The notes under the pieces were generated by a model. That model was not told where the DNA came from, searched no databases, and worked only from the letters and a program-made list of their open reading frames with translations. A stretch of DNA of 64,000 nt from Alloascoidea hylecoeti. Lineage: Eukaryota. The DNA is taken from assembly GCA_001600815.1 (NCBI GenBank), contig BCKZ01000018.1, positions 401,974 through 465,973 on the forward strand. Reading direction: 5' to 3'. Of the stretch, positions 5,934 through 35,812 are shown piece by piece. How positions within the stretch are numbered: the stretch's first letter is position 1; every line of letters starts with the position of its first letter. A program made the translations under genes and the position numbers.

Positions 5934-6067
5934 TTTTTTCCCAATTAAGGTTTTCTGAACAAGGCCCCTAGCACTTCAAATTTAAAGTTAAATACTCCAT
6001 GAATTCTCGTTTTCTTTCTTTATTTTCTCTGCTTTTGGTAATTCATCATTAATAATTTAATATTAAC

Positions 6068-14387: not shown

Positions 14388-15277
14388 ATGTCAGGTAAGT
14401 AAAAATAAAAAAGGGGGATATATGAAAGAATAGTGATAATTGACCAAAGTGGATGAGTAGGATTTGATTATAATAATGATTACTCTGGAGGACACTCAGG
14501 AGGTGGATTTAACAACGATGGAGGTAGTCAGGAGGCAAGAGTAAGTTAGTTATAAAATGGATTGATTAATTTGTTAGCACGACAATTAACAAGGACGAAA
14601 AGACACAACAAAGACAAAGCTTGACGCCAGTCACCATCAAACAGATCGGCTTAATTCAAATCCACCCAGATAATACATTCGAGCTTGATGGATGTGATAT
14701 TCAGCAGGTTAAGTTTGTCGGAAGTATTTCCACTATCCAGGATGCAGCTACGTCGTTGACATACAAGCTGGAGGACGGGACAGGCAGCATTGAAGCACGC
14801 AAATGGGTCAGCGATGTGGCAGAGGAGGACCAGGAAGAGAGCGGTGCGCCCAAACTTGAGATAAACCGTTACGCGCGGGTCACGGGCAACGTGCGGTCGT
14901 ACCAGGACCGGGTGCAGGTGGTGATCGAGAAGATCGTGCCGGTCGAGGACCACAACGAGGTTCTGTACCATCTGCTGGAGGCCGCCGCGGTGCACGCGGA
15001 ACGCACGCACGCACCCACGGCCGCGTCCCGTGCGTCCCGTGCGCACGACGAGGGCCAGCTGTTTGTGGGCGGCGAGGGCGGCGAGGGCGGCGAGGACGGG
15101 CGGATCGTTGAGTTTCTGCGCAGCGAGCAGGCCTCCGGCAACGGCGAGGTGCACGTGAACGCCATTGCGCGCGGGGTGACGCTGGGGAGCGAGCGGGTGC
15201 TGGCGGTGCTGGAGCGGCTGGTGGAGGCCGGGGAGGTGTACAACACGCTCGATGACTACCACTTTGCTCTAACTTAG
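14388..15277 (+). CDS. RFA2: Replication protein A 32-kDa subunit; exons 14388-14394, 14461-14540 and 14594 or 14603-15277
   Basis: Two GTAAGT introns give MSGFDYNNDYSGGHSGGGF.... The OB fold reads SLTPVTIKQI...YKLEDGTGSIEARKW and DHNEVLYHLLEA, and the C-terminal winged helix ends GEVYNTLDDYHF. Confidence 0.92.
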
Positions 15278-15300
15278 TTTCGCTAACTTAGCTTAATTCT

Positions 15301-15335
15301 ATGATGTCATGCGGTCACGTGCGCTGCTGAGTCAG
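15301..15335 (+). promoter_or_regulatory. Cluster of CRE-like (TGATGTCA), E-box (TCACGTG) and AP-1/Gcn4 (TGAGTCA) sites upstream of RCK2
   Basis: Three recognisable motifs within 35 bp, about 80-110 bp before the ATG. Confidence 0.5.
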
Positions 15336-15410
15336 GAAGTGTAGTTTCTGCTCTTAATTTGAGGTATTCTTCCTTCACTTCCATACTACCCGTTTCCCTT
15401 ATCACCATTC

Positions 15411-17507
15411 ATGGCTTTGCAGAACCTGAAAAACTTCATCCGTCGTGGACGCCAGGCCTATGACAGCCCGTCGACCGTCCTCACCACCGACCCGGTCATG
15501 GGCCTAAACTCCCATTCTCAGATAGATAGTACCGTAGATCAAAGTCAAAATCAATCCCATGCGGACAATCAACCACAGTCTTCGAGTCCCCCTCATCCTA
15601 CTTCGACCACCCCTGTCAAAGAACTTCCTGATACTCCTACTGGTGCTGATTTATATAATGAAGCCGCTAACAGGATAGTACAAGAAGAAGAAGCTAAAAA
15701 ATCGAAAATGCCAACGTATCCGGGTTTAGATAACTATTTACTATTAGATCAAATGGGAGAGTAAGTATTTTGTACTTTTATTTTTCATGAACCTATCTTT
15801 CTAATCAATTTTATCATCTTTTTTTTTAATTTTTTTTTTTTTTTTCATTGCCTTTTCTTAGGGGTGCATTCTCGATTGTTTATCGTGCTCAAGATTTAAC
15901 CACAAAAGAATTTGTGGCGGTAAAAGTTATTAAAAAATATGAAATGGATGCTATTCAGGTATGTTTTTTTGTTTTTTTTATTTATTATCATATTCATTTT
16001 CAAATTCATTATTTTATTTTTGATTTTGTTTATTTTGTTTTTGTTTTTGTTTTTTTTTTTGTTTTTTTTTTAATTTAATTTCTATATTTTGTTTTGATTT
16101 ATGTTCGCTCACATTTATTTATGTTTTAATTTTAAAAAGGCTGAGAAAGTCCTTGGTAGAGAAGGTAAAAGGGCTAGAGAATTGGTTAAGGTTGTTTATA
16201 TTTTTGAAATTTTATTTATATTTGTCTTTTATTAACTTCATCTTTATTCATATTTATTCATATTTATTCATTTTTCTCTCTTCCTTTTATTTTAATCTTT
16301 TATTTTTTTAATCTTTTATTATTTATTGTCATCAAATTACTAAATACTAACATAAAAATGAATATAGAAATCAAGTATCTTAAAAGAAGTAGCAATCATG
16401 AGACAATTACGACATCGAAACATTGTATCATTTTATAGATTTATTGAAGCAAATCAATATTATCATATAATTCAAGAATTAGTACCAGGTGGTGAATTAT
16501 TTCAAGAAATTGTTAGATTAACATATTTTTCTGAAAATTTATCTCGTCATGTAATTAGACAAGTTGGTGAAGCTGTACGTTATTTACATGAAGAAGCAGG
16601 TATTGTTCATCGTGATATAAAACCAGAAAATTTATTATTTTATCCAATTGAATTTAAACCATCAAAAAAGCAAGTTTTCAGAAAAGGTGATGATCCAAGT
16701 CAAAAAGTTGATGAAGGTGAATTTTTACCAGGTATTGGATCTGGTGGAATTGGAATTATAAAATTGGCAGATTTTGGTTTATCAAAACAAGTTTGGGATA
16801 GTAAAACGAAAACTCCATGTGGTACTGTTGGTTATACTGCACCAGAAATTGTTCGAGATGAAAGATATACAAAATCTGTTGATATGTGGGCAATTGGTTG
16901 TGTTTTATATACAATATTATGTGGTTTCCCACCATTTTATGATGAAAATATTGAAACATTAACTGAAAAAGTTGCAAAAGGTCAATATACTTTTTTAAGT
17001 CCATGGTGGGATGATATTAGTAAAGATGCAAAAGATTTAGTATCTCATTTATTAACGGTTGATCCTGATAAAAGATTTACAATTGATGAAATGTTAAATC
17101 ATAAATGGATGAAACAAGGTACTGTTTTAAAAGATAATGCTTCTGATTATAGACAATTAGTTAAACCTTTAGCAAATACTTCAATAAAATCACCTGCAGC
17201 AGTAACATTAAGAGAAATTTTTGATGTTTCAAATGCTGTTCATAGAATGGAAGAAGAAGGTGCATTAAGGAAAGGTGGTGGTAATTTAGGAATGTTAAAT
17301 GAATATGAAGAAGATAGTGATGATGATCATGATGAAGAATTAACAATTCAATTTGAACCAAATTCAAGTCGTTCTCGGGGTCGTGGAAGGAAACCAAGAG
17401 TTTTTGATTTAAGTTTGGATGGTGCAACACTTTTGGAACGACGTAAAAAAAAAAATAATACAATTGATATGAATTTGAATTTTGATGATAATAAATTAAA
17501 AGTGTGA
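15411..17507 (+). CDS. RCK2: MAPK-activated CAMK kinase Rck2/Srk1; exons 15411-15760, 15862-15958, optional 16140-16190, 16368-17507
   Basis: MALQNLKNFIRRG N-terminus, spliced GEGAFSIVY, VAVKVIKK, HRDIKPENLLF, the Rck-specific VDEGEFLPGIGSGGIGIIKLADFGLSK and FDLSLDGATLLERRK. Confidence 0.93.
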
Positions 17508-18697
17508 CGATAATCAATGGATGTTTTCATTTTATACAATTGCAAGTGTTTTAAGACCTTAATCAAGAAGTTAAATTTAGATAAATTTATTCTTGATTGT
17601 TATACGTTATATTTTTCAGTTAATTGATCAATTAATATTAATTAATTTTTTTACCATTTTTTATATATCCTTTATCTATCTTATCATTTATTTTTCATCT
17701 TTTATTATTATTATAATTATTATAAATTGTTTCTAGTGCTTTTTTTGAATTAGTTTATTGTTTATTATATATGAATTTGAAAATGGAAATTTAAACTATT
17801 TAATTTACTACCAATTGAATTTTTTGTATGTATATGTATGAATGCATTTGAACATTTAGTGGCTATGTACGGTACACCAAAACATAGCCTTTATAAGGAA
17901 TGCATATTCATCGAATTTAAATAATAATAATATAATAGTTGTTTATATTTGGTAATTAATTTATGCTGATCTTTTAATTTGAGAAATCGTGTTTGTATTA
18001 GGCTAAGCATTTCTCCGTACCTTATTTCTTAATTTTATTCTATTAAAATAATTAATAAATATTTCTATTTTATAATCATAATTGTGTACTTATACATTCA
18101 ACAAATGGATCGGGGTTTAAGAGATTTGCACCAATAATCAGCATTGTAAATAGTCCAAACTATATTGCAAATGGTTAATCAGTATCCCAATCGGAATAAT
18201 TATTTCAACAGAGTTATATTGTTACAAGTTAAATAGAATAAAGTTTTATTATTTATATTATATTTGGTATGATAATTAATGTCAAATAGAACAAGGATAA
18301 ACCTTAAATAGTTTAATATGTGGGCTATAACAAATTAAAACGATCTACTTGTACTTTAAATTTTTACTTGCACTTATCAAATGTCAAATATTTCAATGAA
18401 TTTTCATCATTGAATTTCATAATTGAATTTCATAATTGAATTTCATAATTGAATCGAGTCGATTCATTAAAATAGAAGTTTACCAAAATAAATAATTAAA
18501 ATTAAAATTTAGTTTTCATTATTCGTTTAAATTTCGTTTTATGTCAAAATTTCCTCTAATTTAGTAAATTATAATATTATATTATTTGAAAATAAAGTTT
18601 TAAAATTATTTAGCACATCATAAAATTATAAAAATTATGGACGAATCTGATTCGCAATTATGTTGAAATAAAAACAAAGAAGACAATAAACAACAAC

Positions 18698-18742
<45 letters not shown>
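18698..18742 (+). repeat. (AAT)n microsatellite
   Basis: Run of about 15 AAT units. Confidence 0.9.
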
Positions 18743-18747
<5 letters not shown>

Positions 18748-18967
18748 AACATGTACTTAGTTAATAATTAATATTTTTTTTATATATAATATTTTATCAT
18801 ATGATTCATAATCAACAACATAAAAGATAAGAAGAAGAAAAAGAAGAAATAAAAAATAAAAAAATAAAAAAATAAAAAAATAAAAAAAAATTTACATTAA
18901 CATTAACATTAATAATATTCATATATTTCATTAAAATTAAAAAGATCAAAAAAAGTTTCAATTTTTA

Positions 18968-19959
18968 TTAATAAAATGGAGAAAATGGAATCAATCCAGA
19001 TTTTCTAAAACCATTATTAATATTTTCTTTAATTAATGAAAATTTTCTTGCTTTATTTAAACATAAAATAAATTCAGGTTTTTTAACTTTTGATAAACCT
19101 AATGATAAAATTAAATCCATTTCATAAACCATTTTATATTTTAATGGTCCATAAATTGATAAATCTAATGGTTGTAAAATATGTGATGTACTTGGTGGTA
19201 TAATTAATAATTGAATATTTGAATTTAAACAAAAATTTAAAAATTTACATGTTATATGTGTTGGATGACCATTATAAATTAAAAGTCTTGGTTTTAAATT
19301 TTTATTTGATCCAGAAGTTGATGTTGTACATTTATATCTTGTTTTTTTATCAAATGAATTAACTAACCAATCATAAATTATATGACTATTAGTCCATCCA
19401 TTTTCAGTACAAATAAATTGCCAATTTTCATCAGTTTCAATTGGGAACCAAGATTTATCAATATATTTTCCTTTAAAAATAATATAAGGATCCAATGAAC
19501 TATTATCACCACAAATACATTCTAAAACAGATATATTATCTTCTCTTGAATGATTTATTTTCATTGAACTATCAACAATTGACCATCTTCTTTGAGTTTC
19601 ACCTAATATAAAACCAGTTTCATCAACATTATAAACATTTTCACTTGTAATTCCATATTTAATGATTATTTTTTCATATGTTTTAAACCATCTTTTTAAT
19701 GTTGTTTCTAAATAAGTACTTGATCTATGTTTATCAATTGGTTGACAAACTATTGAAGGTAATTCAGGATGTCTTTTAATAAAACGTTCAATCCAAACTT
19801 TACATGTTCTATAATCTGGAAGTGTTGAAGAAGGTCTATTAATATATTTAGAACTTGAACTTGAACGTGAATTAGTATTTGAATTTGAATGATTATTCAT
19901 AATTTGCCCATTACCATTAATATCCAAAACTCTATAATCATTATTATTATTATTATTAC

Positions 19960-19992
<33 letters not shown>

Positions 19993-20165
19993 AATAGGTT
20001 AAATATGGTTCAGAAAAGTTTAAATTAACATTATTTTGTTGATAAAAATCATTTGTTTGAAGTATTGGGAAACCATTAGTACCAAGTACAGAACCATTTG
20101 AAAAATTAGTATTAAAATCATTTGAATAAATTTGAGAATTATTACGATGATGATGATGATGATGA

Positions 20166-20196
<31 letters not shown>

Positions 20197-20677
20197 GATT
20201 TGAATTTAAATATGCAAATGGTTGGTTTAAATTATATTCCGAAGATGAAGAATTTGATAATTGTGTTGATAAATATGAATCATTTGATGGAGTTAATGAT
20301 AAAGATGGTGATGTAATTGGTAATGATTCTTTACCAGATCTATTATTAAACATTTCTTTAATAAGTTCATAAATATGTCTTGATGTAATAGGATAACCAC
20401 TTCTTGATAAAACTTTAACATATTGAGATAAAAGAGATTCTTCACGGGAAGTTAACATATCATCTTGTAATTGTAACTGTAATTGATTGTGATGATGAAC
20501 TATATTATTGTTTGAATCTTTTGATTTTCTACCTTTAACTCTAAAATACAAAGTTGTGTATGGAATACCATGAGCCCTGGCGGCATCTTTGATGTTTGCA
20601 TGAAGACCATTTTCAAGTTCAGAGATTGCACTTTTTATATTAATCTCTCTTGGAGAGTTTGCATGTTTGGCGGCCAT
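18968..20677 (-). CDS. Domesticated pogo/Fot1 transposase-derived (CENP-B-like) protein: psq HTH, Tc5 HTH and DDE_1 domain
   Basis: NIKDAARAHGIPYTTLYFRVKG, LTSREESLL, WIERFIKRHPEL, IIKYGITSENVYNVDETGF, NGWTN, RLLIYNGHPTH, PPSTSHILQPLD and GFRKSGLIPF. Intact ORF with polyQ/H/N inserts and no terminal repeats seen. Confidence 0.9.
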
Positions 20678-21032
20678 TGTTGCTATTGTTTGCTATTGTT
20701 ATTATTGTTTGATTGTGATCATAAAAAGAAGGAATTGGGGACATTTTATAAGTTTCTTGGAGTGGAAAAGATTGACATATTTTCTGTGCATATGAACAAC
20801 GGATTGGGAATTATTATCTTGAAATGAGCTGCAGCATGCATTGAAGAAGGCTGTCCAACTTTTATACGGAGAAGATCCCTTCTAATTACCTTCTAGAAAC
20901 GCGGAAGAACATTGGAAGAATATCAAAAGAACACAGCCTTCTGCAATACGCTTCTCTGCATGCTTCGGTGCATACACCCGTCCCCCTGTTATCCATATAT
21001 TGTCTTTTTCCGGACATCCAGACACAATAACT

Positions 21033-23266
21033 ATGTTAATGCATCGCACATTGAACTATGCACTGCTGCTATTTACGCTGTTTATCCACAATTCACAGAC
21101 GTCTTACGCCCCTTACGAGGTCGACTGCCCGTTGACCTCCGTCGTCAGGCCCGCAAAGGTATACGCGATACCCAACCTACAATCCTCTTTTTGTGACTAA
21201 TGCCGTTTTAGGACCTGGGTGCGGACGAAAAGATTTATATAGATAAGCGCCATGCAATCACAAGAAATGCTCTTCACTGGTTTTTCCACAAGATCGATTT
21301 TAACACTTCCGTCGATTTTGACGTTGATACCTTCATTGACCAATCTTATAACGTGATACCACCAGCTCATGAAGAAGAAGAAGAAGTTTATTCTCCAATA
21401 AATATAGGAATCGCGCTTTCTGGTGGTGGGTTTAGGGCAATGTTACATGGCGCTGGGTGTATCTCAGCTTTAGATGGCCGTTCAAACTCTCATGATACAA
21501 ACAGAAACAGACAGGTTTCAACTTTGGGAGGTTTATTACAATCTTCTTCTTATATTGTTGGTGTTTCTGGCGGTTCTTGGGCTTTATCTTCCCTTGTTGT
21601 TAATGATTTTCATACCATTGAACAAATATCTAAGTGGAACTTATCTTCAAGTATATTTATGGGAATCCCTGATGTTAAAGTTAGACATCCAACAACTGAA
21701 GATCCTTCAAATATTTTAAATGGAGATGGATTATCTGATATTTTATCACATCAAACAACAATGATGATGAATAATAAAGATAAAGATAAAGATAAAGATA
21801 AAGATAAAGATAATGTTAATGTTAAAACAAAACCAAATCTTGTAAAATCATTATTTAAAAGATTAAAAAATAAATTTGATAACAAATATAAAACTGCAAA
21901 TAATGATTATAAAAAATTAAATACAGTAACTAATACTTTTAAAGAAACTCTTTCATATTATTTAAATTTACATCTTCAAGTTGAAGAAAAAAGAAAAGCA
22001 AAATTTAGTGTTTCATTAACTGATTATTGGGGTAGAGCATTATCATCAAAATTATTTTTAAATCAACAATTAACAAAATCAATGACAATTAGTGATATAT
22101 CAAATTTATCATCATTTAAAAATTTTAAACAACCATTTCCAATTTTTATATCAAATGCAAGATCTCCAATTGATCCTGATAAAGATGCTGATAGTATAAC
22201 TTCTAAAATTTTTGAATTTTCTCCATTTGAATTTGGTAGTTGGGATTATAAATTACATGCTTTTTTAGATATTAAATATTTAGGTTCAAAAATAAATCAA
22301 GGTAAACCAAATAAATGTGTTAATGGTTATGATAATATTGGTTTTCTTGTTGGGACATCATCATCATTATTTAATAAAGTATTTACTTTTTTATATAATG
22401 CATTAAATAATGCAGAAAAAGAGCAAGAAGAAGAAGAACAAAAATTAAATTTAAATAGAGATGATAAAAATACAAAAAAATTTTTAAAAGCAATTTCAAA
22501 AACAATTCAATTATTTGGAAATTTTAAAAAATATCCTGATTATGCAATATTTGATCCAAATCCATTTTTTAATTATATTGATAGAGGAATTAAAAGTGAT
22601 ATTTTAAATTCTAAAAAATTATATTTAGTTGATGGTGGTGAAGATGGACAAAATATTCCTTTTAATCCTTTATTACAACCACAAAGAAAATTAGATATTA
22701 TATTAGCAACTGATTCAACAGCAGATTTAAATAATTGGCCAAATGGTACAACTTTACAATTTAGTTCAAGAAGATATCATGGTAATAATATTTATACTCC
22801 ATATAGATGGTATAATGGTATTAAAAAAAGTTTATTCCCTTATGTTCCATCAACTGAAGAATTTCTTGAAATGAATTTACATCAAAAACCAAGTTTTTTT
22901 GGATGTGATGTTAATAATTCATATCCAACTTTATCTAATCAAGTTGGTGAATTTGAATATCCTGAACATGATGAATATAATTCAAATTTTCAAATACCTC
23001 CATTAATTGTTTATATACCAAATTCACAATATTCTTTTCTTTCAAATACTTCAACATTTAAATTAACATATTCCGAAGATGAAAAAGATAAAATGATCAA
23101 GAATGGATTTGATGTAATGTCACAAGGAAATAATACAAATTGGTCAACATGTATTGGATGTGCTATATTACATAGAGCAATCATGAGACAGAGAACAAAT
23201 CCTCCTGATATATGCAGAGAATGTTTTAAGCAATATTGTTGGAATCCACCAATTGGGATAATTTAG
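21033..23266 (+). CDS. SPO1: Meiotic phospholipase B-like protein Spo1; exons 21033-21158 and 21212-23266
   Basis: Signal peptide followed by SYAPYEVDCP. Intron GTATAC...GACTAAT...TTAG. Motifs IALSGGGFRAML, GVSGGSW, SLTDYWGRALS, FEFSPFEFGSWD and VDGGEDGQNIP, with no GPI tail. Neighbours match YNL012W-YNL011C-YNL010W. Confidence 0.85.
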
Positions 23267-23756: not shown

Positions 23757-24528
23757 ATGGATAAAGAGATTAGTTTAGCAATCATTTCAGGCGGAACAGC
23801 CACAAATGAATTAGTTGAACTATTTTCATCGATTACACCACGTATAACTTATATTTTACCGGTTAGTGATAATGGAGGATCAACGTCTGAATTAATTAGA
23901 GTACTTGGAGGACCAGCATTGGGTGATATTAGGTCAAGAATAACAAGATTAATACCTGATAATGAAAGAGGGATTATATTAAAGGAATTTTTTTCTCATA
24001 GATTAAATGAAAATGGATTAATTGCAAAACAAGAATGGGATTCAATTGTTGAAGGAACTCATTCAATTTGGAATAATATTGAGCAACAATGGATTGAATT
24101 AATTCGAGCATTTTTAATACATGTTCATGTTGAATTATTAAAAAAATCAAGACCTGGTAGAGAATTTAAATTTGAATGTGCAAGTATTGGGAATTTATTT
24201 TTAACAGGTGCAAGATTATTTTGTGGATCTGTTGATAGTGCAATTGAATTAATGTTAAGAATTGTTAATATATCGGAATCTATTCAAGTTCTTCCTTGTT
24301 TAAATACAAACTTTAGCCATCATATATCAGCACTTTTAGCCAATGGTACGATTGTTACAGGACAATCTCAAATCTCGCATCCTACAGATATTAAAGAAAT
24401 AAATCCAAACCCAGAGGTTTCAAGTGGAGAAATTAATGAAACTCGTCCAGCTACCCCAATTAATGTTATATCCAATAATTGTAATGGAAATAATAATAAT
24501 AATATCAATGGAAATAATAATAATAATG

Positions 24529-24569
<41 letters not shown>

Positions 24570-25166
24570 TATATTGATTCGGATGAGAATCTGCCTTATT
24601 TACACCCGGATTTAAGAATATCACAAATTCATTTCAATAAAGATAAAATCGTTCCATTGATAAGCCCAATTAAACGAATATTTTATATAAGTCCATATGG
24701 AGAGGAATTCCACCCAAGGGCCCACACCCGAGTAATCAAGTCTATTGGGAAAAGTGATGCTATCATCTATTCGATTGGCAGCCTACTGACAAGCACAATA
24801 CCGGTGGTTATCTTGCAAGGGGTTGGGCAAGCCATCAGGGAATCGGCGACAGCCAAAAAGAAGGTATTGCTCCTGAATGGCAGTATCGACCGAGAAACAT
24901 TAGGGCTGGATGGGACAGGGTTCGTGCGAATGATAGTAGAAGCGGCGATTTACAGCATTCAGGGCGGAGAAGATGTGGAGACGGTGGACTGGAGTCAGTA
25001 CGTAACCCATGTAGTGTATATTACAGGAGGGGTGCCCGTGAGGCAGGAGGAGGTTGAATCGCACGGGATCCGGTGCCTTGGAGTGAAGGGGATTCTGTGC
25101 GGGCAACAACTACACTACGAAGCAGAAGATCTTGGACAGGTGCTGGGGGAAATAATATCTGAGTGA
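23757..25166 (+). CDS. CofD/YvcK (UPF0052) family protein, YNL011C homologue
   Basis: ISGGTATN, YILPVSDNGGSTSELIRVLGGPALGDIRSR, ASIGNLFLTGARLF, GQSQISHP, IKRIFYISPYGEE, IIYSIGSLLTS and LLNGSIDRET. Confidence 0.9.
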
Positions 25167-25470
25167 ATATGGTAAACATGGGCGAATTATAATACCACCG
25201 AAAAGAGCCCGCAAAGAGCTGTTTCCGGTAGAAATAGAAGATTGGTAGGCACATGGTTGGATGAGAAGGCGTTACTCCAGCCTGCAACATCACGCCCAGA
25301 ATGGTAAGATGGATGCAACACTCATGTGCCTTTGCATGGCATGCGAACGGAAAGGATCTTCCATTAATGTGTTTATACATGATATTGAGATATCAACTTT
25401 ATAATTTATAATTTATAATTTATATATCTTTAATTTTTTTCTCTTCTTCCTCTCCATATTATATTTCATA

Positions 25471-26458
25471 ATGACAACATCTTCCTCAAGTGCTCCTCAA
25501 GCAATAGTCTTCACAGATTGGGACGGAACGGTGACGCAGCAGGTAAGCCGCACCAGCAGATCAGTGTCTGATCTTGATCTTTAGGACCGCACCGAAGACT
25601 AACGCCAACTGCATTTTTCACAGGATGGTAATGACTATTTGGCGGATAATTTGGGGGTGGGTCCAGAACGACGCCGCGAGATCAATGTAGAGATTCTGGA
25701 GGGGAAAAACAGCTTCAGGTTAGTATTCTCCCACCTGGCTGGCCTGGCCTGGCCTGCCTGGCCTGGCCGGCAGCATCGTAAACACGAGCACTAACAGCTA
25801 TTGACATTTGCAGAGAAGGCTTCCAGGAGATGGTGGACTCCATAACACTGCCTTTCGACGAGTGCATCGAGCTGGTTAAACGAGGTAAGTTGAGATATGT
25901 GACTCCCGATTATTAAAGTTGTTCTATAATCATCGCCAGTGATGGATCGCATGCTAACGTGAAATAGATGTGGAACTGGATCCCGGATTCGCTGACTTTT
26001 ACCTGTGGTGTAGATCGAATAATGTCACTCTGATCGTTGTGTCAGGAGGCATGAAACCTCTCATATCGGCCCTTCTGGGACACCGTCTGGGCCAGGGAGC
26101 CTTGGAAAACATCGAGATCATATCGAATGACGCTACTGTCGATGAAAATGGTGCATGGGACATAGTGTACCGTGATGACACAATCTTTGGTCACGATAAA
26201 TCAAATGCCATCCGTCCTTACAACAGAGCCCCTGCTGGACAGAGGCCGCTCCTCTTTTATTGTGGTGATGGGGTCTCTGATTTAAGTGCTGCTCGTGAAA
26301 CGGATCTACTATTTGCTAAACGTGGTAGGGACTTAATTACCTTCTGCAAAAGAGAAGGAATTCCTTTTCATACGTTTGATTCCTTCCGCGACATCCAACA
26401 TGAAATCGAATCTATTCTCTCAGGCAACAAGCAACTGGAAGATAGCTTTGAAAATTAA
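25471..26458 (+). CDS. PYP1: Polyol phosphate phosphatase (HAD family, YNL010W); exons 25471-25542, 25624-25718, 25814-25884 and 25968-26458
   Basis: Three in-frame GT-AG introns join AIVFTDWDGTVTQQD-GNDYL, SFREGFQEM, LDPGF, VVSGGMKP, FGHDKS and FYCGDGVSDLSAARETDLLFAK. Confidence 0.92.
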
Positions 26459-26942
26459 TTAATATTTTCAGACATTTTCAAACATTTTCAAACATTTTCA
26501 AACAAATTTAATTATATGTCAAACAAATTAAACAAGAATTTAAAAAAAAACATCAATATTGATATTTATTATTATTAATATATATTAATCTATTTTCCAA
26601 CCTCCTCCAATTACAATTCAACTAATATTGTTTTATTTTTGGACTTACTTATTTCCCGATATTAGTGTTCTGATATTTATCTTTAATTCTCATGTTTTCT
26701 ATTTAATAACTCATTTTTATCAAAGTTTATTCAGGTCGGGTACTATGTTTAAATTTGTTATTATTTATATTTTCTTTCTTCATCATCTTTTTCTTTTTTT
26801 GCCAAAAAAAATTTCAAATTTTTCAAAATTTTTTTATGTTATCAATAATACAAACCATTTTTTTTTTTTTTTTTTTTTGTTTATCTATTTCTATTTCTAA
26901 TTCTTTTCTTATTTCTCGTTATAAATAGTATAGACATTAATA

Positions 26943-27470
26943 TTAATTAATGGGATCTTCCTTTTCATGGGCTTCAAGTTTATCCTGTTGTGTAACCCTT
27001 CGTAATACTTCTCTTCTTGAACTTTCTTGAATATTTCCACCTAATAATAATTCATCAAGGATATAATATGCCTTTTGGAAATTGAAAATGATATCTAATT
27101 CACATACATTTCCATAATATTTATCCATTAATTCAACATATCGGTGAATAGTTTCAAGGGCTATGAGTTCATTATCATCTCCATCAATACCTGCAATGAA
27201 AAATAATGATGCGTATCTTCGATATACAATCTTTGAATCTATTAAATCATATCGGTTAATTTCTTATGTCATTCATCATCTTTCACTTATCATATAAATC
27301 TTCTTACCTTTATATTCCAAAAAATTACACATTCGTGCACGTCTCCCCAAAACAATTGTGATTATTTCCCGAATAATCTTGGTTCGATCTTTTGTAGATA
27401 TTGTTTGAAACCATTTAACCAATCTGACTTTGCCCTGACGAGACAACAATATCATATATCGTAGAGCCAT
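26943..27470 (-). CDS. APS1: AP-1 adaptor small (sigma) subunit; exons 27470-27308 and 27238-26943
   Basis: [13 protein letters not shown], spliced [22 protein letters not shown], and [23 protein letters not shown]. Confidence 0.93.
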
Positions 27471-27657
27471 CCTTTTGAATAATAACTAACCCTTTTAAAA
27501 TCAACTTTGCCAGATACACAAAAGGAAAGTTGTATGGGTGTAACACAACCCTTCACCAATGTGTATAATTAGGCCTTGATAGTATAATTATTATATGCTG
27601 CTAACTAAACTACCTTAATAATATGCGATTATACTATATATGCTATATATTTACCAT

Positions 27658-29523
27658 CTATTCCATGAATGGTATTGTATCATATAAATGCTGTAATTGT
27701 TCATTAATCTCTAAGCATAAATCTGATCTTTTAACCTTTTTAAAAGTATCAACTTCAATCCTTTTTTTACATAATAATTCATCCATGATAGTCCATGTTG
27801 AAAGCTCAAAATCATAACCGATTAATTTTGTCATACCTGTTCCATATAATCTTCGTCGAACATTTGATTTTGTAGTTAATTTCTTACCTGTTTTTAATTC
27901 CCATGGATTTAATTTTGGAAAATTAGCATGAATGAATAATACTCCTGGGGCACTTAAAGGATTTTTTTCAGTTAGATCTTGTTCATTGTATCCTTCCCGA
28001 GTATTTGCCGCACTAGATTTGGTTTGCCCTCCAGATCTAGTCTTAGATCCACTATTAACAGGTAGTAATTGTTTCTTTGGATCAACTTCCATCTCAATTT
28101 CTCTACTAACTAATTTATGAGAATTTAAATTTTGATCTTCCTTTATCAATAATGTCTCTTCATTTTTTCTACCAATTGGTTTATCCACTTTTAAGGTACT
28201 CTTATTATTTAATAATTTCTTATTTTCCATAGTATGTTTAAAAAGATTATAATCTGCAACTGGATCATATTGTCCCATTCCAGTACCAATAAATTCAGTA
28301 CGATCAGTTTCATCCCAATATCCAAGAGCATTTAAAAATTTCTGTACTTGATAAAAATTCTCTTTTACAACGACAGCTGCAGCTAAAAATGTTTCTTTAT
28401 CTCCTTCTCCATCAGATCCTTGTGAAAATAATGGATAAAAATGAGTTGGACCAAATAAGTTATAGTATAATGATAAAAACATTGTTTTTGAATGAGTTGC
28501 TTTACTTAATAATAATTGTCCACTTTCTGAAGTTGGATCAGGTATTGCACCTTCTCGATCATGTAATGGAATACTATTAAGATTATTAATATCACCTCTT
28601 ATTCTTTTTGTTGATACATCAATACCGGCAATTTTATAATAATATGGTGACGTGGCTCTTCTCCAAAAATCAGGCCAAACAACAAGACCATAAGATAAAA
28701 ATGGATCAGAAGTAAATAAATAATCAGGATTATGAGCAGGAATATTATCAGAATCTAATAATAGAACATTTTCAAATGATGATATTAATAAAGCTAAAGC
28801 TTTATATTGATAACCTCTAAATTGAAACATACTTGTAACATCTTTACCTAAAGCTTTTGGTAATATAACACATTTTGTATTTAAATTTGGGAAAATATTA
28901 TCACATAATTCAACTTCATATTCTTCTAATGTTGGTATAATTACTTCAATTGGACTTGAACAATTTAAATTATTTCTTAAATGTTGAATAGATAATAAAG
29001 CTAACCAATTGAATTTACCACCACCAACCATTACAATTCCATTACCTTGATATAAATCTTGGGTATTAATATTTGGTAAAGATCTTACTAAATTTTGATG
29101 TGAACTTGATAAAGATATAACTTCTTCATTTGTAAGATCTAAATATTGGCCTAAATATGTTTCAGTAAACATTGGTTCTTCTAATGGTTTTTCATAAGCT
29201 GCGTGATAAATACGTTCATCAACTTTATAATTTGTTAAAGATTGTGTTGTTGGTTTATATTTTGAAAATAATCTAAAAAGTTGTGAATAAATATGTTGAG
29301 CATTTGCATTTCTTGATTTTGAATTATCAATTGCTAAAGATGCTTTTAATTTTGAAGCTGTTGTTGAAGTTGATCTACCCAAAGAATGAAAAAATGATGA
29401 AGAATTCAAGGATGAGGATGGGTCATGAGTATAGAAATTATACAATATAATGACTAAAATGATAGAAAAAATTAAAATCCTTTCATATCGTTTACCACGT
29501 CTTCTTGAAAACCATAGTCTCAT
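27658..29523 (-). CDS. Alpha-1,2-mannosyltransferase (GT71, Mnn2/Mnn5 family)
   Basis: Type II membrane anchor, GIVMVGGG, YQYKALALLISSFENVLLLDSDN, VWPDFW, TSESGQ, GEGDKETF and FIHANFPKLNP. Confidence 0.92.
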   Translation of the reverse strand: MRLWFSRRRGKRYERILIFSIILVIILYNFYTHDPSSSLNSSSFFHSLGRSTSTTASKLKASLAIDNSKSRNANAQHIYSQLFRLFSKYKPTTQSLTNYKVDERIYHAAYEKPLEEPMFTETYLGQYLDLTNEEVISLSSSHQNLVRSLPNINTQDLYQGNGIVMVGGGKFNWLALLSIQHLRNNLNCSSPIEVIIPTLEEYEVELCDNIFPNLNTKCVILPKALGKDVTSMFQFRGYQYKALALLISSFENVLLLDSDNIPAHNPDYLFTSDPFLSYGLVVWPDFWRRATSPYYYKIAGIDVSTKRIRGDINNLNSIPLHDREGAIPDPTSESGQLLLSKATHSKTMFLSLYYNLFGPTHFYPLFSQGSDGEGDKETFLAAAVVVKENFYQVQKFLNALGYWDETDRTEFIGTGMGQYDPVADYNLFKHTMENKKLLNNKSTLKVDKPIGRKNEETLLIKEDQNLNSHKLVSREIEMEVDPKKQLLPVNSGSKTRSGGQTKSSAANTREGYNEQDLTEKNPLSAPGVLFIHANFPKLNPWELKTGKKLTTKSNVRRRLYGTGMTKLIGYDFELSTWTIMDELLCKKRIEVDTFKKVKRSDLCLEINEQLQHLYDTIPFME

Positions 29524-30182
29524 ACTGTCATGAGATTTCTTATCAATGTCTTGAATATCAATTTTTGATCTGGTTCTGGTGGTAGAATTTTCAAGATTTG
29601 CCGACGTGTTTGGATTTGTGCTTGTGCTTGTGTTTGGATTTGAGTTTGAGTTTGTGTGGGTGTGCGTATTTGTGTCAGGATGACTACGGACACGGTAATG
29701 AGTATTCTTTGGGGCTAGTATTTTGGATGGTAGTGCGCACGGAGTGGGTGATGATGGTGAATGTTGACGGTAATGTCAAGTTGCGGAGATGGCCTATATG
29801 TAGGAGAAAGAGAGGAAAGTGGAAAAAGAGAAGTATTTTTAAAATAGTAAATCCCAAGGTTTTAAAGTTGGATAGTTAAGAGTTGCCCTATGTTTCATGC
29901 ACAAATAATATTTCAAAACCTTTTCTATTTTTTAAGCTCTACTTTCCGATAATCCACTATGATAAACTGCTATTGAGATCTCTTGTTTCAATCTAGGCCT
30001 GGACGTCTAAATATAGGGCTAATATAAGCTTAAGGTATCTACATGTGGAAATATTTTTTTCATGTATAGCAATTGCAATATTATGTAAAATATTTACGCC
30101 TATTTACAGTGCCTAGATTGTTGATATGTTATCTACAAGATTTGTTCTCCGCAAATGAATATGAATGCAAAAACAGAACAGT

Positions 30183-32714
30183 TTATAGGTTTTGAATAAT
30201 TTCATCCCTTCGAGCTCTATTAACAGGTTCAAATCCTTCTAATTCCATATTAAAATTGCCTCTACCTTGTGTAAGACTTCTTAAAACATTCACATAACCC
30301 ACCATTTCTCGTAAAGGAGTTCTGGCTCTAATAATTTTAGAACCAGATTCTGATCTGTTTCCATGTTTACTCATATATAATGTCAAATCTTTTGGAACAT
30401 GGATTTTCTCAACTTCTGCACGCGAATCAAAGTCTGATTTATCATTTATTGAAATTTCATGAGTTGATTCATCTTCAATTCCTTCAATTTGCCCCTTTCT
30501 ACCAGATGTCATATCATGAGTGATTTTTCCTAAATCTTCTTCTGTAACAGTAACAACAACTTTCATAATTGGTTCCATTAATGCAAATGAATCAGGTTTT
30601 AATTTACTAAGTGCATGTGTCATTGCTTGACGAGTTAATGTTGTAAGAGGCGATGGTATATCAACATCATCAGGCATTTCCCAATTTTTAATTCTTATAT
30701 TAATAGAATGTAATGGGAAATTATATGGTCCACCACTTGATATACATGGAATAACACCCATTTTAAAAGCATTTTCCATTTTTTCTTCAGAAATTAATAA
30801 ATGTTTTAAATCACAATCATATGTTATGAAATTGTTATCAAAACCAAGATTTTCAGAATTTTCATTATTTTCAGAATTTTCAGAATTTTCATTATTTTCA
30901 GAATTTTCATTATTTTCAGAATTTTCATTATTTAATTGATCATTAGACATTTCAACTTGTAAAGTTACTGAATATTGATCTTCAATAGTTTTTTTACATT
31001 CAATTGTAGTTTGTAAAATTGTTTCTTTATATGAAACCATAATTTTACCCATTTCAACCCTTGCTTTCATTTCATTAATCAAACGATCTCTAATAATTTC
31101 TAAATGTAATTCACCCATCCCACTAATTAAAGTTTGTCCAGTTTCTTCATCAATATTAACATGTAAACTTGGATCTTCACGTATTAAAATTTCTAAACAT
31201 TCATCCATATTTCTTTTATCAGAAATTGTTAATGGTTCCAAAGATGCAAAAAATACTGGTGATGGGACTTTAATTGGTAACAATTTAATACTTTTTTCTT
31301 GTTCTGAAAAGGAATTAATACCATTTTTTTTAGTTGAATGTCCAATTATTGTATCACCAGTTCTTAAAGCTTTTGACCCACATATAACTCCAATGTTTCC
31401 ATTATCAATACTTGGAATATCTATTGGTGAATCTGCATGCATTAATAATAATTTCCCAATTCGTTCTTTTTCTCCTGTTGATGTATTTAAAACTGTTGCT
31501 CCTGATTTTAAAGAATTTTTATACATTCTAACAAATACCATAATTCCTCTGTTAATATCATTAACTACTTTGAATGCTAAACCAACAATCATTTGACTAT
31601 TAACCGTATCTAAGTTTTTAGATATTATCCCATCATTTTGATCTATTGTTTCAGGTAAATTTTTTGATAGATGTTTTTTACTACTTTTATTTTTAGTCCT
31701 TTGCATTTCAATAATTGGTGGAGCACGTTCTAAAGGAGATGGTAAATATTCAACAATTGCTTCTAATAAAGGTTGAACACCAATATTTTTAAAACTTGCA
31801 CCACAAAGAATAGGAACAATTTCATTTTTTAAAGTTGCAATTCTTAAAGCTTTTTTAATTGAAGTAGCTGATAATTCCATATAATTATATTCAGAATCTT
31901 CTAAATTAAAAAATTCTTCAACAAGTGATTCATTTAATTCAGTTAATGTTTCAATTAATGAAGTACGACATTTTAAACATTCATCAAAAATTAATGGTGT
32001 TGATTCTTTTGTTATATCAATTATTGAAATTTCTGGATCATTACCATTAATTGAATCAGACCATTTAAATATTTTTTTATCAATTATATCAATAATACCA
32101 ATAAATTTTTCATCATGAGTACCTTGATTTAAAAAAAATGGTATATTAACTAATCCAACTTTTGTATTTAATTTTGTTATAATTTCTTTAACAGTTCTAC
32201 TAAAACCAGAACCATCTCTATCCATTTTATTTATAAAAATAATTTTTGGAATTTGAAAATCAATTGCTTGTTTCCAAACTTTTTCAGTTTGTGATTCAAC
32301 TCCAGCAACTCCATCTAAAATTGTTATACAACCATCTAAAACTCTTAATGATCTAATTACTTCAAATGTAAAATCTGCATGCCCTGGAGTATCAATTAAA
32401 TTAATTTTATGATTTTTCCAATATAGTGTTATTGCTGCTGAAGTTATTGTTATACCTCTACTTCTTTCAGCAGGTAAATAATCCATTACTGTATCTCCAT
32501 CATCAACATTACCAATTCTTTTAATCAATCCTGAATAATATAACATTCGTTCAGTAGTTGTTGTTTTACCTGCATCGATATGGGCAATAATTCCAATATT
32601 TCGTATCTTATCAGTTTTAGTAATTGTAGGAATTGTAGAATAACTTCGTAAAGGCTTCCATAATGATATTAATTGTTTCCGAAGAAGTGGTCTAGCCAGC
32701 TCCATAAGAATCAT
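30183..32714 (-). CDS. MEF2: Mitochondrial EF-G2 / ribosome-releasing factor 2
   Basis: RNIGIIAHIDAGKTTTTERMLYYSG, GDTVMDYLPAERSRGITITSAA, DTPGHADFTFEV, NKMD and GMGELHLEI. Contains an (NNENSE)n insert. Confidence 0.95.
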   Translation of the reverse strand: MILMELARPLLRKQLISLWKPLRSYSTIPTITKTDKIRNIGIIAHIDAGKTTTTERMLYYSGLIKRIGNVDDGDTVMDYLPAERSRGITITSAAITLYWKNHKINLIDTPGHADFTFEVIRSLRVLDGCITILDGVAGVESQTEKVWKQAIDFQIPKIIFINKMDRDGSGFSRTVKEIITKLNTKVGLVNIPFFLNQGTHDEKFIGIIDIIDKKIFKWSDSINGNDPEISIIDITKESTPLIFDECLKCRTSLIETLTELNESLVEEFFNLEDSEYNYMELSATSIKKALRIATLKNEIVPILCGASFKNIGVQPLLEAIVEYLPSPLERAPPIIEMQRTKNKSSKKHLSKNLPETIDQNDGIISKNLDTVNSQMIVGLAFKVVNDINRGIMVFVRMYKNSLKSGATVLNTSTGEKERIGKLLLMHADSPIDIPSIDNGNIGVICGSKALRTGDTIIGHSTKKNGINSFSEQEKSIKLLPIKVPSPVFFASLEPLTISDKRNMDECLEILIREDPSLHVNIDEETGQTLISGMGELHLEIIRDRLINEMKARVEMGKIMVSYKETILQTTIECKKTIEDQYSVTLQVEMSNDQLNNENSENNENSENNENSENSENNENSENLGFDNNFITYDCDLKHLLISEEKMENAFKMGVIPCISSGGPYNFPLHSINIRIKNWEMPDDVDIPSPLTTLTRQAMTHALSKLKPDSFALMEPIMKVVVTVTEEDLGKITHDMTSGRKGQIEGIEDESTHEISINDKSDFDSRAEVEKIHVPKDLTLYMSKHGNRSESGSKIIRARTPLREMVGYVNVLRSLTQGRGNFNMELEGFEPVNRARRDEIIQNL

Positions 32715-33064
32715 TTTTCATCCTTTCAAGGTACACAAAGTTTCAATATTTCAAATTTATTTAGCCGGGTAATTCTATCAACTCTCTCTACATTAAATAT
32801 ATATTTGAAAATGAAGATGAATTTAAATATGAATTTGTATTAAGTAATAAATATAAAAGATAAAAGTAAAATTTTAATCAATTGTTAAAATATGATTATA
32901 TATATATATACACGTATTAAATAGAATAAGTGAAAAGTCATTAATAATTTTTATGTTCTAAATTTTAAATCTAATGTTGAAATTAGAAAATAAAAGATAA
33001 ACCATCAAGAGAACAAAGAGTGAAAGAGAATTAAAGAAGAAAAAAATAAAAAAATAAAAAAAAA

Positions 33065-33907
33065 TTATTTCCCTAATAAACTTAAGAATTCTTCTCTTGT
33101 TTTACTCATTTCTCTAAAAGTCCCCAACATACAACTAGTAACAGTTTTACTACCCAATTTTTGAACACCACGCATAACCATACACATATGTTCACATTCA
33201 ATGACAACAGCAACACCTTGAGGTTGTAAAATTTCACTTAAAGCCATTGCAATTTGTTTAGTTAATCTTTCTTGAACTTGTAATCTTCTTGAATACATTT
33301 CAGCTAATCTTGCTAATTTTGATAAACCTAAAACTCTTTTATTTGGTATATAACCAATTGAAACTTTCCCATGAAATGGTACTAGATGATGTTCACATAA
33401 AGAAAAAATTGGAATATCTTTAACAATTACCATTTCATCATGATCTTCTTCAAATATTGCATTATTTATAATATTTGTTAAATTTTCTTCATAACCTTTT
33501 GTAAAAAATAGCATTGCTTTCGCATAACGATCAGGAGTTTTTAATAAACCTTCACGATTAACATCTTCTCCCAATTCGGTTAATAATACTTTTACAGCAT
33601 CAGCGATTCTTTTTGTTCTTTCAGTTGATTCATCATTTGATTCTTCTAATCTATTTCTTGCACCTGGAGAAGGCCAAGATAAACCATCATAATCAACAGG
33701 AGGTAAGATTGTGTGTGGGGATATACGACGGGTTGATAATGGAGTACCAGGAAGAGTTGGAGGTTTTTGAGGAATTGTAGATATATTTAAAGAATTTGAA
33801 GAAAGATGAACGGTGTTACGTTGAGGTTTTGGATGATTTAAGATGGTTGTTGCGATATTATGATCATGATCGTTTGAATCATCGACACTACTTGATTTGT
33901 CCGACAT
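33065..33907 (-). CDS. FOL2: GTP cyclohydrolase I
   Basis: [51 protein letters not shown] and [11 protein letters not shown]. Confidence 0.97.
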
Positions 33908-33939
33908 TTTTAAAGAACTTTTAAAGAATTTTTAAAGAA

Positions 33940-34340
33940 TTTTTAATGATTGTTAAAAGAATTTTTAATAAATACTCAATGAATTATGAATATATGATTT
34001 TATGATTTTATGATTTTATGATTTTATGATTTTATGACTTGGAAATAAATAAAAAAGAGTACTAAATTAATTTTTTTTGAAATATTTAAATTATACAGTA
34101 TGAGTAATATGGTAGTACATGGAAAAACATTGAATAAAAAAAAAAGCTCACAACAAAAAAAACCGAAAATATAAAATATTTTCCGAATTTCGAGCGAAAT
34201 ATGAAAAAGTTTGAATTTTCCGAGTCCTTTGCACGTTCGGCAGAATTCGGAACCGAGCTGATCCCACATTCGGCCGGATCCACCACAGGTACCGCATAAA
34301 TTCCCAAGCTTACCATGCCGGAGTACCGCTACTTGCACGG
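33940..34340 (-). repeat. Diverged tandem duplicate of the HUA1 3' end and 3' flank
   Basis: 34226-34300 aligns without gaps to 34576-34650 (62/75 by hand count) and reads LCGTCGGSGRMWDQLGSEFCRTCKGLGK. Region 33940-34070 resembles 34418-34530. Confidence 0.85.
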
Positions 34341-34556
34341 GAGCCCGCAGGCGGGTCGCATCGCTTAGCTAAGCACGAACGTATTCCGTAGAGCATTGGC
34401 CAATGCCACAAAGGTTAGAATTTTTTAATGATTGTTCAATGAATTTTTATATATAGAATATTTAATGAATACTCAACGAATTATAAATTATATGAGTAAC
34501 AGAAGAGATTGAAAAATAAATAAGATGTAGCACGATATGTTATGACACAACCCAAA

Positions 34557-35078
34557 TCAAAGCAAACGGCCAACTCCTTTGCACGTAGGACACAATTCGG
34601 ATCCAAACAGGTCCCAGATTTGGCCGGATCCACGACAGGCACCGCATAAAACACCTCCGATGCTGGGATCGCCAGGCTGGACCATGCGGGGGACTCGGGG
34701 GACTCGGGGGACTCGGGGCATTAGGGGTGCTTGGATCACGCGGGGAATTCCGGCGTTAAAGGACAGGGAGCGAGGGGCAGAGCTGGGCTGGTACTGGGCA
34801 GTGTTTGGGGTGGCGAACAGGAAATAGCATGATTTGCAGGTGTTGCCGTTCTTCAACTTCGTGCCCGTATTGTGGCACTTGGGACACCAGTAGTTGTCCG
34901 GGTAGTGGAGACGCGGGTTGCCGTTGTAGTTGTTCGGGTACGGCTGTGGGTACGGCTGTGGGTACGACTGAGGGTGGTTGTACTGTGGGGGTGCCTGGGA
35001 TGTGCTTGCTCTGCTTGCTCTGCCGTTGCCCGCATTCGGGTCGTATCTGGAGTAGGGAGGAGGATTCTCTTTTGGCAT
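34557..35078 (-). CDS. HUA1: Proline-rich zinc-finger protein Hua1
   Basis: PPPY motif, WCPKCHNTGTKLKNGNTCKSC, VQPGDPSIGGVLCGACRGSG and CPTCKGVGRL. Adjacent to FOL2, as in S. cerevisiae. Confidence 0.9.
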   Translation of the reverse strand: MPKENPPPYSRYDPNAGNGRASRASTSQAPPQYNHPQSYPQPYPQPYPNNYNGNPRLHYPDNYWCPKCHNTGTKLKNGNTCKSCYFLFATPNTAQYQPSSAPRSLSFNAGIPRVIQAPLMPRVPRVPRVPRMVQPGDPSIGGVLCGACRGSGQIWDLFGSELCPTCKGVGRLL

Positions 35079-35153
35079 TGAGTTGAAAGATGGAAGGAGG
35101 GTTAACTACTGACTACTTATATTCTCTCTCAAACCTCCATTTTTCACCACCTA

Positions 35154-35769
35154 ATGATTTGGCTATCGGAAACACAGAGTACGTTCATACTCAACCATAC
35201 TTCTACATATAATTAACTAACCTTCCTCTGCTTCAGAATTTGGTGTTGCCTTCACCGCAGGAGGTATGCTCATCTTCAATTGGTGTCAATCATACCTTTA
35301 TCAGCAGCAATTTTAACAATCTAAATATAGGAGTCTTCTTCTTCTTCTTCGGAATAATCATGTTCTTCGATAGACCTTTATTAGCCCTTGGAAATATCTT
35401 ATTCATCTTTGGTCTTTACTTAATAATCGGTCCAAATAAAGCTTATTCTTTCTTCACAAGGCCAACTAAAATCCGTGGTACAATATTTTTTGTAATAGGT
35501 ATCTTATTAATTTTATTAAAATGGTCAATTATTGGTTTTATAATTGAAATTGTTGGAATATTAGGATTATTTGGTGATTTCTTTGGTATCATTGTTGGTT
35601 TTTTGAAAAGTGTTCCTTATCTTGGTCCTATCTTAACAAATAGATTTATTGAACCTGTAAGTAACATATTCCTATTATTATTCATTTTAATATTCATAAC
35701 TAATTATAAAATATCTAGTACATTGATAAACTAGCTGGTATTACAAGTCAATCAGTTCTTCCAGTGTAA
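35154..35769 (+). CDS. GOT1: Golgi transport protein Got1; exons 35154-35178, 35237-35263, 35331-35656 and 35719-35769
   Basis: Spliced product [42 protein letters not shown]...[19 protein letters not shown]. All three introns are GT-AG and in phase. Confidence 0.93.
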
Positions 35770-35812
35770 ACTATTTATATATTATTGAATTAATGAATAT
35801 AATTCTGATAAT

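Follow-up and report, generated by a model that had tools for sequence, protein, structure and literature searches.

GC peaks beside promoters of the yeast Alloascoidea hylecoeti, with a flip in strand composition, as possible footprints of GC-biased gene conversion

Introduction

In dogs and birds, GC-biased gene conversion at stable, PRDM9-independent promoter hotspots gives rise to peaks of GC content, and the genes of plants carry 5'-to-3' GC gradients. Peaks of GC at third codon positions (GC3) are described for the chromosomes of Saccharomyces in the available text of PMC2997560. Here we analyze a stretch of 64,000 nucleotides from the budding yeast Alloascoidea hylecoeti (contig BCKZ01000018.1, positions 401,974 to 465,973; hereafter the window), in which three strong GC peaks adjoin promoters and the forward (+) strand turns from purine-rich to pyrimidine-rich. 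Like the peaks of dogs, birds and (in the text available) PMC2997560, these are kilobase-scale rises that adjoin promoters and affect silent as well as non-coding sites; they cross genes and drag protein composition with them. They differ in being extreme for a yeast, with GC at four-fold degenerate sites rising from 7.5% to 92% in ~500 bp, in being few, discrete and, in two of three cases, lopsided, and in that recombination is inferred. The phenomenon is of a known kind, of which this is an unusually extreme example.

The flip in strand composition has relatives of its own. According to the available text of McLean and Tirosh (PMC3315797), nearly all unicellular fungi have a coding strand with an excess of C at promoters and 5' ends and an excess of G at 3' ends, and the skews of GC and AT correlate positively (purine type). 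If this rule holds, the + strand should change from G to C at every type of spacer between genes, among them the tandem spacers at our first two peaks and the divergent one at peak 3. The flip at our locus resembles this skew in its C-biased 5' ends, its presence at four-fold sites, its purine type and its sign. In that same text, the strings 'recombination', 'convergent', 'divergent', 'tandem', 'neighbo...' and 'double-strand' each occur zero times.

A second relative is found at human recombination hotspots. The available text of Hinch et al. 2023 (PMC7615360) describes strand-asymmetric C>N and A>N changes in the 2-kb flanks of hotspots, with C>G, A>G and C>A peaking off-centre. On the left the forward strand forms the single-stranded tail, an assignment of sides that is our reading of the text and not of the figures. 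Our locus shares with these hotspots a mirror asymmetry about the putative break site and the loss of C from the exposed strand. The human data are de novo and rare-variant mutations at short-lived PRDM9 hotspots, whereas ours are accumulated composition, with no loss of A. A third relative is the skew at yeast replication origins (PMC3459929), a jump of ~9% that relaxes over ~20 kb, with a leading strand rich in A+C. It has the same sign of GC skew as the flip described here, but it is roughly ten-fold smaller, acts over a 20-kb range and has the opposite TA sign.

What raises GC so steeply at these three places, and why does the composition of the strand turn there? The original prediction, made from the sequence without database searches, read the peaks as very stable meiotic hotspots whose conversion tracts and strand-asymmetric mutation have been written into the DNA. 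A full-text search of a limited literature found no account of promoter GC peaks this extreme in a budding yeast, nor of a base-composition flip at recombination hotspots. Here we report an analysis of the window that addresses both the peaks and the flip. We conclude that the peaks are probably linked to recombination, judging from the composition and position described below.

Results

The background from which the peaks rise is strongly AT-rich. The window has 30.6% GC overall; open reading frames (ORFs) between 9 and 45 kb have a GC3 of 7-14%, and outside the peaks only 171 of 2292 four-fold degenerate sites (7.5%) are G or C. We defined peaks as segments whose GC over 200 bp is at least 0.42, identified genes through Pfam and modeled exons and introns by hand. 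All composition statistics refer to this one 64-kb window and its three strong peaks.

Three sharp peaks stand out, as had been predicted. The strongest, peak 1 (14601-15750), has a mean GC of 54% and a centroid at 15123; its 200-bp maximum of 74% lies ~13 standard deviations above the window mean. It covers the 3' half of an RFA2/RPA32-like gene (14388-15277, + strand; three exons with Pfam OB-fold and RPA_C domains, spliced into an open frame of 257 codons), the spacer that serves as terminator of this gene and promoter of the next (15278-15410; 133 bp, 43% GC), and the 5' end of a CaM-kinase-type (RCK2-like) gene on the + strand, whose first exon lies in the peak to the right of the spacer.

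Peak 2 (24651-26400; mean 47%, maximum 56%, centroid 25521) takes in approximately the last 500 bp of a CofD/UPF0052 (YNL011C-like) gene (23757-25166, + strand; Pfam CofD, 1.9e-40), a spacer of 37% GC (25167-25470, with an AT-rich dip at ~25350-25470) that holds the promoter of the next gene, and the whole of that gene, a HAD-family phosphatase (PYP1-like; 25471-26458, + strand, four exons, Pfam HAD).

Peak 3 (34151-35200; mean 49%, maximum 65%, centroid 34718) has two lobes. The left lobe (34151-34400) is non-coding; within it lies a 76-nt duplicate of the 3' end of a proline-rich CxxC gene. The right lobe (~34520-35200) contains that gene itself (34557-35078, minus strand, 174 codons) and a 75-bp spacer (35079-35153), which is the divergent promoter between it and the GOT1 gene (35154-35769, + strand; four exons, Pfam Got1). 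The peak also reaches into the 5' untranslated region and introns of GOT1; these introns are pyrimidine-rich, with GC of 36, 31 and 16%. The CxxC gene has only a weak, sub-threshold Pfam match. We refer to it as HUA1-like, a name taken over from the original prediction and unconfirmed here.

At four-fold sites GC reaches 54/59 in peak 1 (14900-15199), 34/51 in peak 2 (24800-25099) and 35/51 in peak 3 (34700-34999), that is, 92, 67 and 69%; the climb from 7.5% to 92% is completed across ~500 bp. The strong peaks are 1-1.75 kb wide. All three are richer on the left, and the four-fold GC of the flanking genes is higher on the left in three of three cases. The predicted spacing of ~10 kb describes the intervals between the three centroids (10.4 and 9.2 kb), but it does not extend beyond them: no comparable peak is present at 1-10 kb or 36-64 kb, and we reject a 10-kb period on these grounds.

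The rise in GC is indifferent to the kind of site. Four-fold sites, introns, spacers and the choice of amino acids all share in it, and gene boundaries are crossed, in agreement with the original prediction. The three introns of the HAD gene have GC of 49, 58 and 39%, compared with 16-36% in six other introns modeled by hand. (Intron statistics rest on nine hand-modeled introns, and the 80 mostly spurious candidates of a loose pattern search were set aside; introns in the window carry the signals GTAAGT...CTAAC...AG.) CpG dinucleotides are observed at 0.76-1.07 of expectation in the peaks and at 0.46-0.58 in the background (27000-45000), while GpC stays at ~0.8-1.06 throughout. The depletion of CpG in the background may reflect context-dependent mutation or cytosine methylation, the latter unusual for a budding yeast.

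Does the rise also affect the protein? For the CofD-like protein we compared GC at codon positions 1 and 2 with orthologues, using the first 60 of 101 length-filtered orthologues among the 120 matches listed. Outside the peak the shifts are +0.004, +0.020 and -0.113; inside peak 2 they are 0.00, +0.07 and +0.146 (Mann-Whitney p=3.7e-5, for this one peak gene). An off-peak control, MEF2, is shifted by -0.054 overall relative to 60 of 109 length-filtered orthologues. Since the CofD-like protein is shifted only within the peak and MEF2 is not shifted upward at all, the push towards GC is local, specific to this lineage and able to change amino acids.

How do the peaks relate to promoters? Between 6 and 37 kb there are 16 spacers, 12 bearing a promoter and 4 convergent. 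Each of the three strong peaks adjoins a promoter-bearing spacer, and none of the 4 convergent spacers is the centre of a peak. Four-fold GC in the flanks of the peak spacers is 0.73 (56/63 left, 25/48 right), 0.57 (30/48, 12/26) and 0.49 (27/43, 5/22) for peaks 1, 2 and 3; it is 0.38 at the neighbor of peak 3, the FOL2|HUA1 spacer, and 0.07-0.23 at the remaining 8 of the 12. Flanks of the convergent spacers have four-fold GC of 0.02-0.30, and these spacers themselves are 12-28% GC. Away from the peaks, too, the first 150 nt of genes have the highest four-fold GC, 0.195, compared with 0.05-0.12 further in. The predicted centring on promoters holds in so far as all three peaks abut promoter spacers; the centroids of peaks 1 and 3, however, lie 200-400 bp to the left.

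We next describe the flip. At four-fold sites, read on the + strand to the left and right of the centres named in the original prediction, the counts are G55:C35 versus G10:C17 for peak 1 (p=0.046), G34:C10 versus G27:C24 for peak 2 (p=0.018) and G40:C15 versus G1:C4 for peak 3 (p=0.031). Pooled, the change is significant for G:C (p=7e-4), for A:T (A56:T42 left, A48:T76 right; p=0.007) and for purine:pyrimidine (p=7e-7). It persists within codon families. For GTN codons G:C is 24:5 in + strand genes on the left, 1:4 in the minus-strand gene on the left and 6:8 in + strand genes on the right; the corresponding figures for GGN are 16:15, 0:8 and 3:5. The composition of the encoded proteins is therefore not the cause, and we reject it. 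Among introns, those of the RFA2-like gene are 76% and 58% purine, and the first intron of the kinase gene is 25% purine.

The flip is concentrated at the peaks. We ranked 19 spacers by the difference between left and right at neutral sites within 500 bp on either side, with some of these intervals overlapping. The purine difference is +0.27, +0.21 and +0.27 at the three peaks and +0.10 at the next highest spacer, so that the peaks hold the top 3 of 19 places (chance 1/969). The change in GC skew at neutral sites is +0.72 at the peaks; promoter spacers without a peak show +0.08, and convergent spacers -0.21. When all sites are counted the picture is different: a G-to-C flip is present at 5/5 convergent spacers and 7/11 non-peak promoter spacers.

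The sign changes at the spacers and not at the GC centroids. At spacer 1 it goes from plus to minus at ~15250-15300, and at spacer 3 neutral G:C is 50:16 on the left and 13:48 on the right. At peak 2 the skew stays around zero or weakly positive along the 5' half of the HAD gene, becoming negative only past ~26100, and four-fold counts in this gene go from G15:C8 in the first 300 nt to G6:C10 in the last 300 nt. The prediction had been worded in just this way, placing the turn in the 3' part of the PYP1-like gene.

Does the flip follow the orientation of genes? To the left of the spacers of peaks 1 and 2 the last 600 nt of the RFA2-like gene (G44:C24) and of the CofD-like gene (G37:C10) are G-biased at four-fold sites. 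These genes lie on the + strand. The HUA1-like gene, on the minus strand, is C-biased on its sense strand (C40:G15 overall), and in its 3' half C28:G4 (binomial p=2e-5). Among the cases that discriminate between orientations, this gene and the 3' end of the HAD gene fit a rule centred on promoters and run opposite to a rule based on position in the gene, while the 5' half of the HAD gene contradicts the promoter-centred rule. The predicted independence of gene orientation accordingly stands on one gene of 174 codons. Moreover, because the published fungal skew predicts the same sign at these spacers, independence of orientation is not by itself evidence for resection.

Genes away from the peaks supply a further comparison. 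Most genes follow the 5'-C/3'-G rule when all sites are counted, convergent ones included. At four-fold sites the first 150 nt of off-peak genes count C44:G22. The last 600 nt count G25:C12 where a promoter lies downstream and G21:C29 at convergent ends (p=0.029 by site, p=0.067 by gene). The concentration of the flip at the peaks, this dependence on a downstream promoter and the 3' ends of the HUA1-like and HAD genes speak for a promoter-centred process rather than one that depends on position within the gene, in small numbers of cases.

Several weaker segments accompany the strong peaks, close to the positions (near 11200, 21000 and 29700) at which the prediction had placed them. One (11051-11300; maximum 47%) lies at the 5' end of a MINDY-type deubiquitinase gene on the minus strand, beside a divergent promoter, with flanking four-fold GC of 13/37 over 300 bp. 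Another (20801-21600; maximum 49%) covers a divergent spacer of 41% GC between a PDC2-like DDE_1 gene (minus strand) and a phospholipase B gene (+ strand). The third (29551-29850; maximum 47%) lies over the 5' leader of a mannosyltransferase gene on the minus strand, where neutral G:C is 104:30 left and 53:55 right of the spacer's centre. Further segments in which GC over 200 bp is at least 0.42 are found at 37401-37700 and at 52.5-54.2 kb.

An ORF with a Rec114/Rec7 N-terminal domain lies at 53841-54326 (+ strand; Pfam 1.7e-13). GC is moderately raised here too, and four-fold GC at the ends of the ORF is ~0.34-0.42. Rec114 is a partner of Spo11 in the formation of meiotic breaks. Since a homologue of it is present in the window, meiotic break machinery is encoded in this genome.

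A number of other features of the sequence deserve mention. The 76-nt copy in the left lobe of peak 3 (34225-34300) is a direct duplicate, 83% identical, of 34575-34650 and lies 350 bp downstream of the HUA1-like gene; its frame continues into AT-rich DNA and has no upstream start codon, and it looks like a relic. Within spacer 1, at 15290-15340, inspection by eye shows a cluster of words resembling factor sites: the CRE-like TGATGTCAT, the E-box CACGTG and the AP-1/Gcn4-like TGAGTCA. In other yeasts, sites of these kinds create hotspots when bound by their factors. Short GC-rich tandem repeats with periods of 4, 5, 9 or 12 occur in every strong peak (15001-15099, 25734-25771, 34687-34718 and 34936-34975), several of them in frame within coding sequence; the whole window is full of tandem repeats (204 rows). 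Just upstream of peak 2 there is a long (AAT)n run (24460-24575), which gives the CofD-like protein a poly-asparagine insert, and comparable AAT/ATT runs lie at 18698-18743 and 19940-19991.

The ORF at 18968-20677 (minus strand) has HTH_psq and DDE_1 domains of the pogo/CENP-B type. It is single-copy in the window and as AT-rich as its neighbors, and from these features it is probably a domesticated gene, which we take to be PDC2-like, and not an active transposon. No ORF of at least 90 codons with a Pfam match is found at 1500-6000 or 45000-52000, stretches that may hold intron-rich genes or DNA that does not code.

The nearest relatives of this DNA are distant. The best protein matches are to Saccharomycotina at only 50-57% identity, and our protein comparisons found no relative nearer than this. 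A search of metagenome contigs for the same locus gave 580 pattern matches, of which 0 were confirmed. The stretch 24000-33999, which contains peak 2, was found in four sequencing runs from three studies (0.91-0.99 of sampled words present), two of which are possibly the source of the assembly; there were no RNA runs among those found.

Discussion

The explanation that we consider best, with somewhat better than even confidence, is that the peaks are footprints of GC-biased gene conversion at a few long-lived promoter hotspots, and that the flip is an asymmetry centred on the promoter whose size scales with the peaks. Breaks would arise at the nucleosome-free promoter, from which conversion tracts would extend 0.5-1 kb to either side. 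AT-to-GC changes would then be fixed there despite strong mutation pressure towards AT. If four-fold sites are at equilibrium under a single mutation bias, a rise from 7.5% to 92, 67 and 69% would correspond to a population-scaled bias B of ~4.9, 3.2 and 3.3. The idea of gene conversion at hotspots is partly supported: it would fit everything about the peaks that was testable within the window. The reading of the flip as a result of resection is compatible with the data, not demonstrated by them.

Several observations weigh against this explanation. The maxima and centroids of peaks 1 and 3 lie ~200-400 bp to the left of their spacers, and the leftward lopsidedness of the peaks is not predicted by a symmetric process centred on a break. 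Only 3-4 of 12 promoter spacers have a peak. The G bias in the 5' half of the HAD gene (G15:C8) is contrary to both models of the flip, and away from the peaks the C bias of 5' ends is gone within 150 nt whereas the G bias of 3' ends extends for 600 nt, which is not mirror symmetry. A is not lost from the presumed tail strand; in peaks 2 and 3 it is abundant on the left. Finally, GC-biased conversion is weak and disputed in Saccharomyces cerevisiae (PMC9246145, available text), and a B of 3-5 would for that reason be unusual for a yeast. A 2026 preprint (10.64898/2026.03.13.711646) proposes, in the text available, that Holliday junctions migrate from hotspots in the direction of transcription and stall at convergent sites. 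Such migration would fit the way in which peak 2 runs on through the HAD gene and peak 3 through the HUA1-like gene, though not the bulk of peak 1.

What causes the flip? Transitions leave the purine content of a strand unchanged, and a purine flip therefore needs strand-asymmetric transversions or selection. If it is linked to breaks, the left side would become rich in G and A through C-to-G and C-to-A changes on the resected 3' tail, on that side the + strand; a loss of A from the tail would not have this effect. The sign of the GC skew agrees with a loss of C from the 3' tail. We regard such an origin as a tentative possibility that falls somewhat short of the balance. An origin in transcription initiation at the same promoter, by which the general fungal 5'-C/3'-G skew is made visible by high GC, comes close to an even call. 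In its geometry, divergent transcription out of this promoter's nucleosome-free region matches breaks, and from sequence alone it is inseparable from resection.

The most serious rival, to which we give a good deal of weight without holding it the probable answer, keeps gene conversion as the cause of the peaks and attributes the flip to the transcription-linked skew of fungal coding strands, including divergent non-coding transcription, which would show wherever G and C are abundant. Such a skew is reported for nearly all unicellular fungi, four-fold sites and promoters included, in the available text of PMC3315797. Our data also speak for it in three ways: most genes in the window obey the rule at all sites, with off-peak starts C-biased; all-site flips occur at every convergent spacer and most non-peak promoter spacers; and the flip is located at the spacers and not at the GC centroids. 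Against it, the neutral-site flip is large only at the three peaks, and the G bias of 3' ends appears only with a downstream promoter (though per gene this reaches only p=0.067). The HUA1-like gene is C-biased up to its stop codon, and its 3' half, like the 3' end of the HAD gene, opposes the rule of position in the gene. The A:T ratio flips as well, whereas the text of PMC3315797 gives a uniform AT skew along genes. In each of these four respects our locus differs from the published skew.

We consider unlikely, taken as a whole, the full proposal of the original prediction, in which every peak is centred on a Spo11 hotspot of great stability, strand-asymmetric damage or repair of resected 3' tails gives rise to the flip, and hotspots can be mapped from sequence alone. 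It draws support from the human hotspot flanks with strand-asymmetric C>N changes (PMC7615360, available text). The four-fold composition is a mirror image about the spacers, also within codon families; the presumed tail strand is C-poor and purine-rich on both sides of the spacers (a statement about composition, not mutations), and the size of the flip tracks the GC peaks. The half-width of the affected region, 0.3-1 kb, is of the order of resection and conversion tracts in yeast. What counts against it is that there are only three peaks and one gene that tests orientation, that the geometry is the same as that of divergent transcription, that the GC maxima are offset from the points of the flip, that the 5' half of the HAD gene is unflipped and that A is not depleted on the tail strand.

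It is very improbable that the changes in skew mark replication origins or termini and that the GC peaks have a separate cause. A change from G to C on the + strand is indeed expected at an origin. But the jump at our peaks is 40-110% within ±0.5 kb, at a spacing of ~10 kb, to be set against the modest and far-reaching yeast signal of PMC3459929. An origin should also show T in excess on its left and A in excess on its right, contrary to what is observed, and it leaves four-fold GC of 92% unexplained.

Least credible of all is that the peaks are selected or artefactual, whether through codon optimization, protein requirements, RNA genes, foreign DNA, repeats or mis-assembly, because introns and spacers are affected too and orthologues show no comparable GC-rich shift in amino acids. 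Selection can locally raise GC3 in this genome, as the RPL4 gene (62410-63537, + strand) makes clear. Its rise comes only from C-ending codons (GTC, TCC, GCC and ACC beside T-ending ones), with G at four-fold sites zero in every family; this is translational selection, with a signature distinct from that of the peaks. Genes in the peaks use GGC, CCC and G-ending codons where RPL4 uses GGT and CCA and has no G-ending four-fold codon, and we reject optimal-codon selection as their cause. RNA genes are rejected as well, as no tRNA gene or Rfam family matches at the peaks. A shared GC-rich repeat is rejected, the only shared piece being the 76-nt HUA1-like duplicate within peak 3. Foreign DNA and mis-assembly, including the assembly junctions that the original prediction had named as a cause to be checked, are rejected because the GC gradients run inside intact reading frames and the stretch containing peak 2 is present in independent runs.

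If the peaks are footprints of gene conversion at promoter hotspots, one may ask how far the argument can be pushed. At its boldest, the genome would be a hotspot map readable from sequence, each hotspot marked by a GC peak with B of ~3-5 and by a transversion flip on the resected tails, and the fungal 5'-C/3'-G skew would be a diluted, genome-wide footprint of recombination and not an effect of transcription. We think this doubtful, and put it forward as speculation.

The more limited claim has consequences enough. If the peaks are conversion footprints, this genome would offer about the cleanest contrast known in fungi between mutation pressure, which holds silent GC at ~7%, and a local fixation bias that lifts it to as much as 92%. 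It would be a natural system in which to study the strength of GC-biased conversion, the lifetime of hotspots and the cost to proteins, in a group for which it is disputed how strong the bias is. The flip, for its part, raises the idea that the general GC skew of fungal genes may be centred on promoters, through breaks or through initiation, and not on position within the gene.

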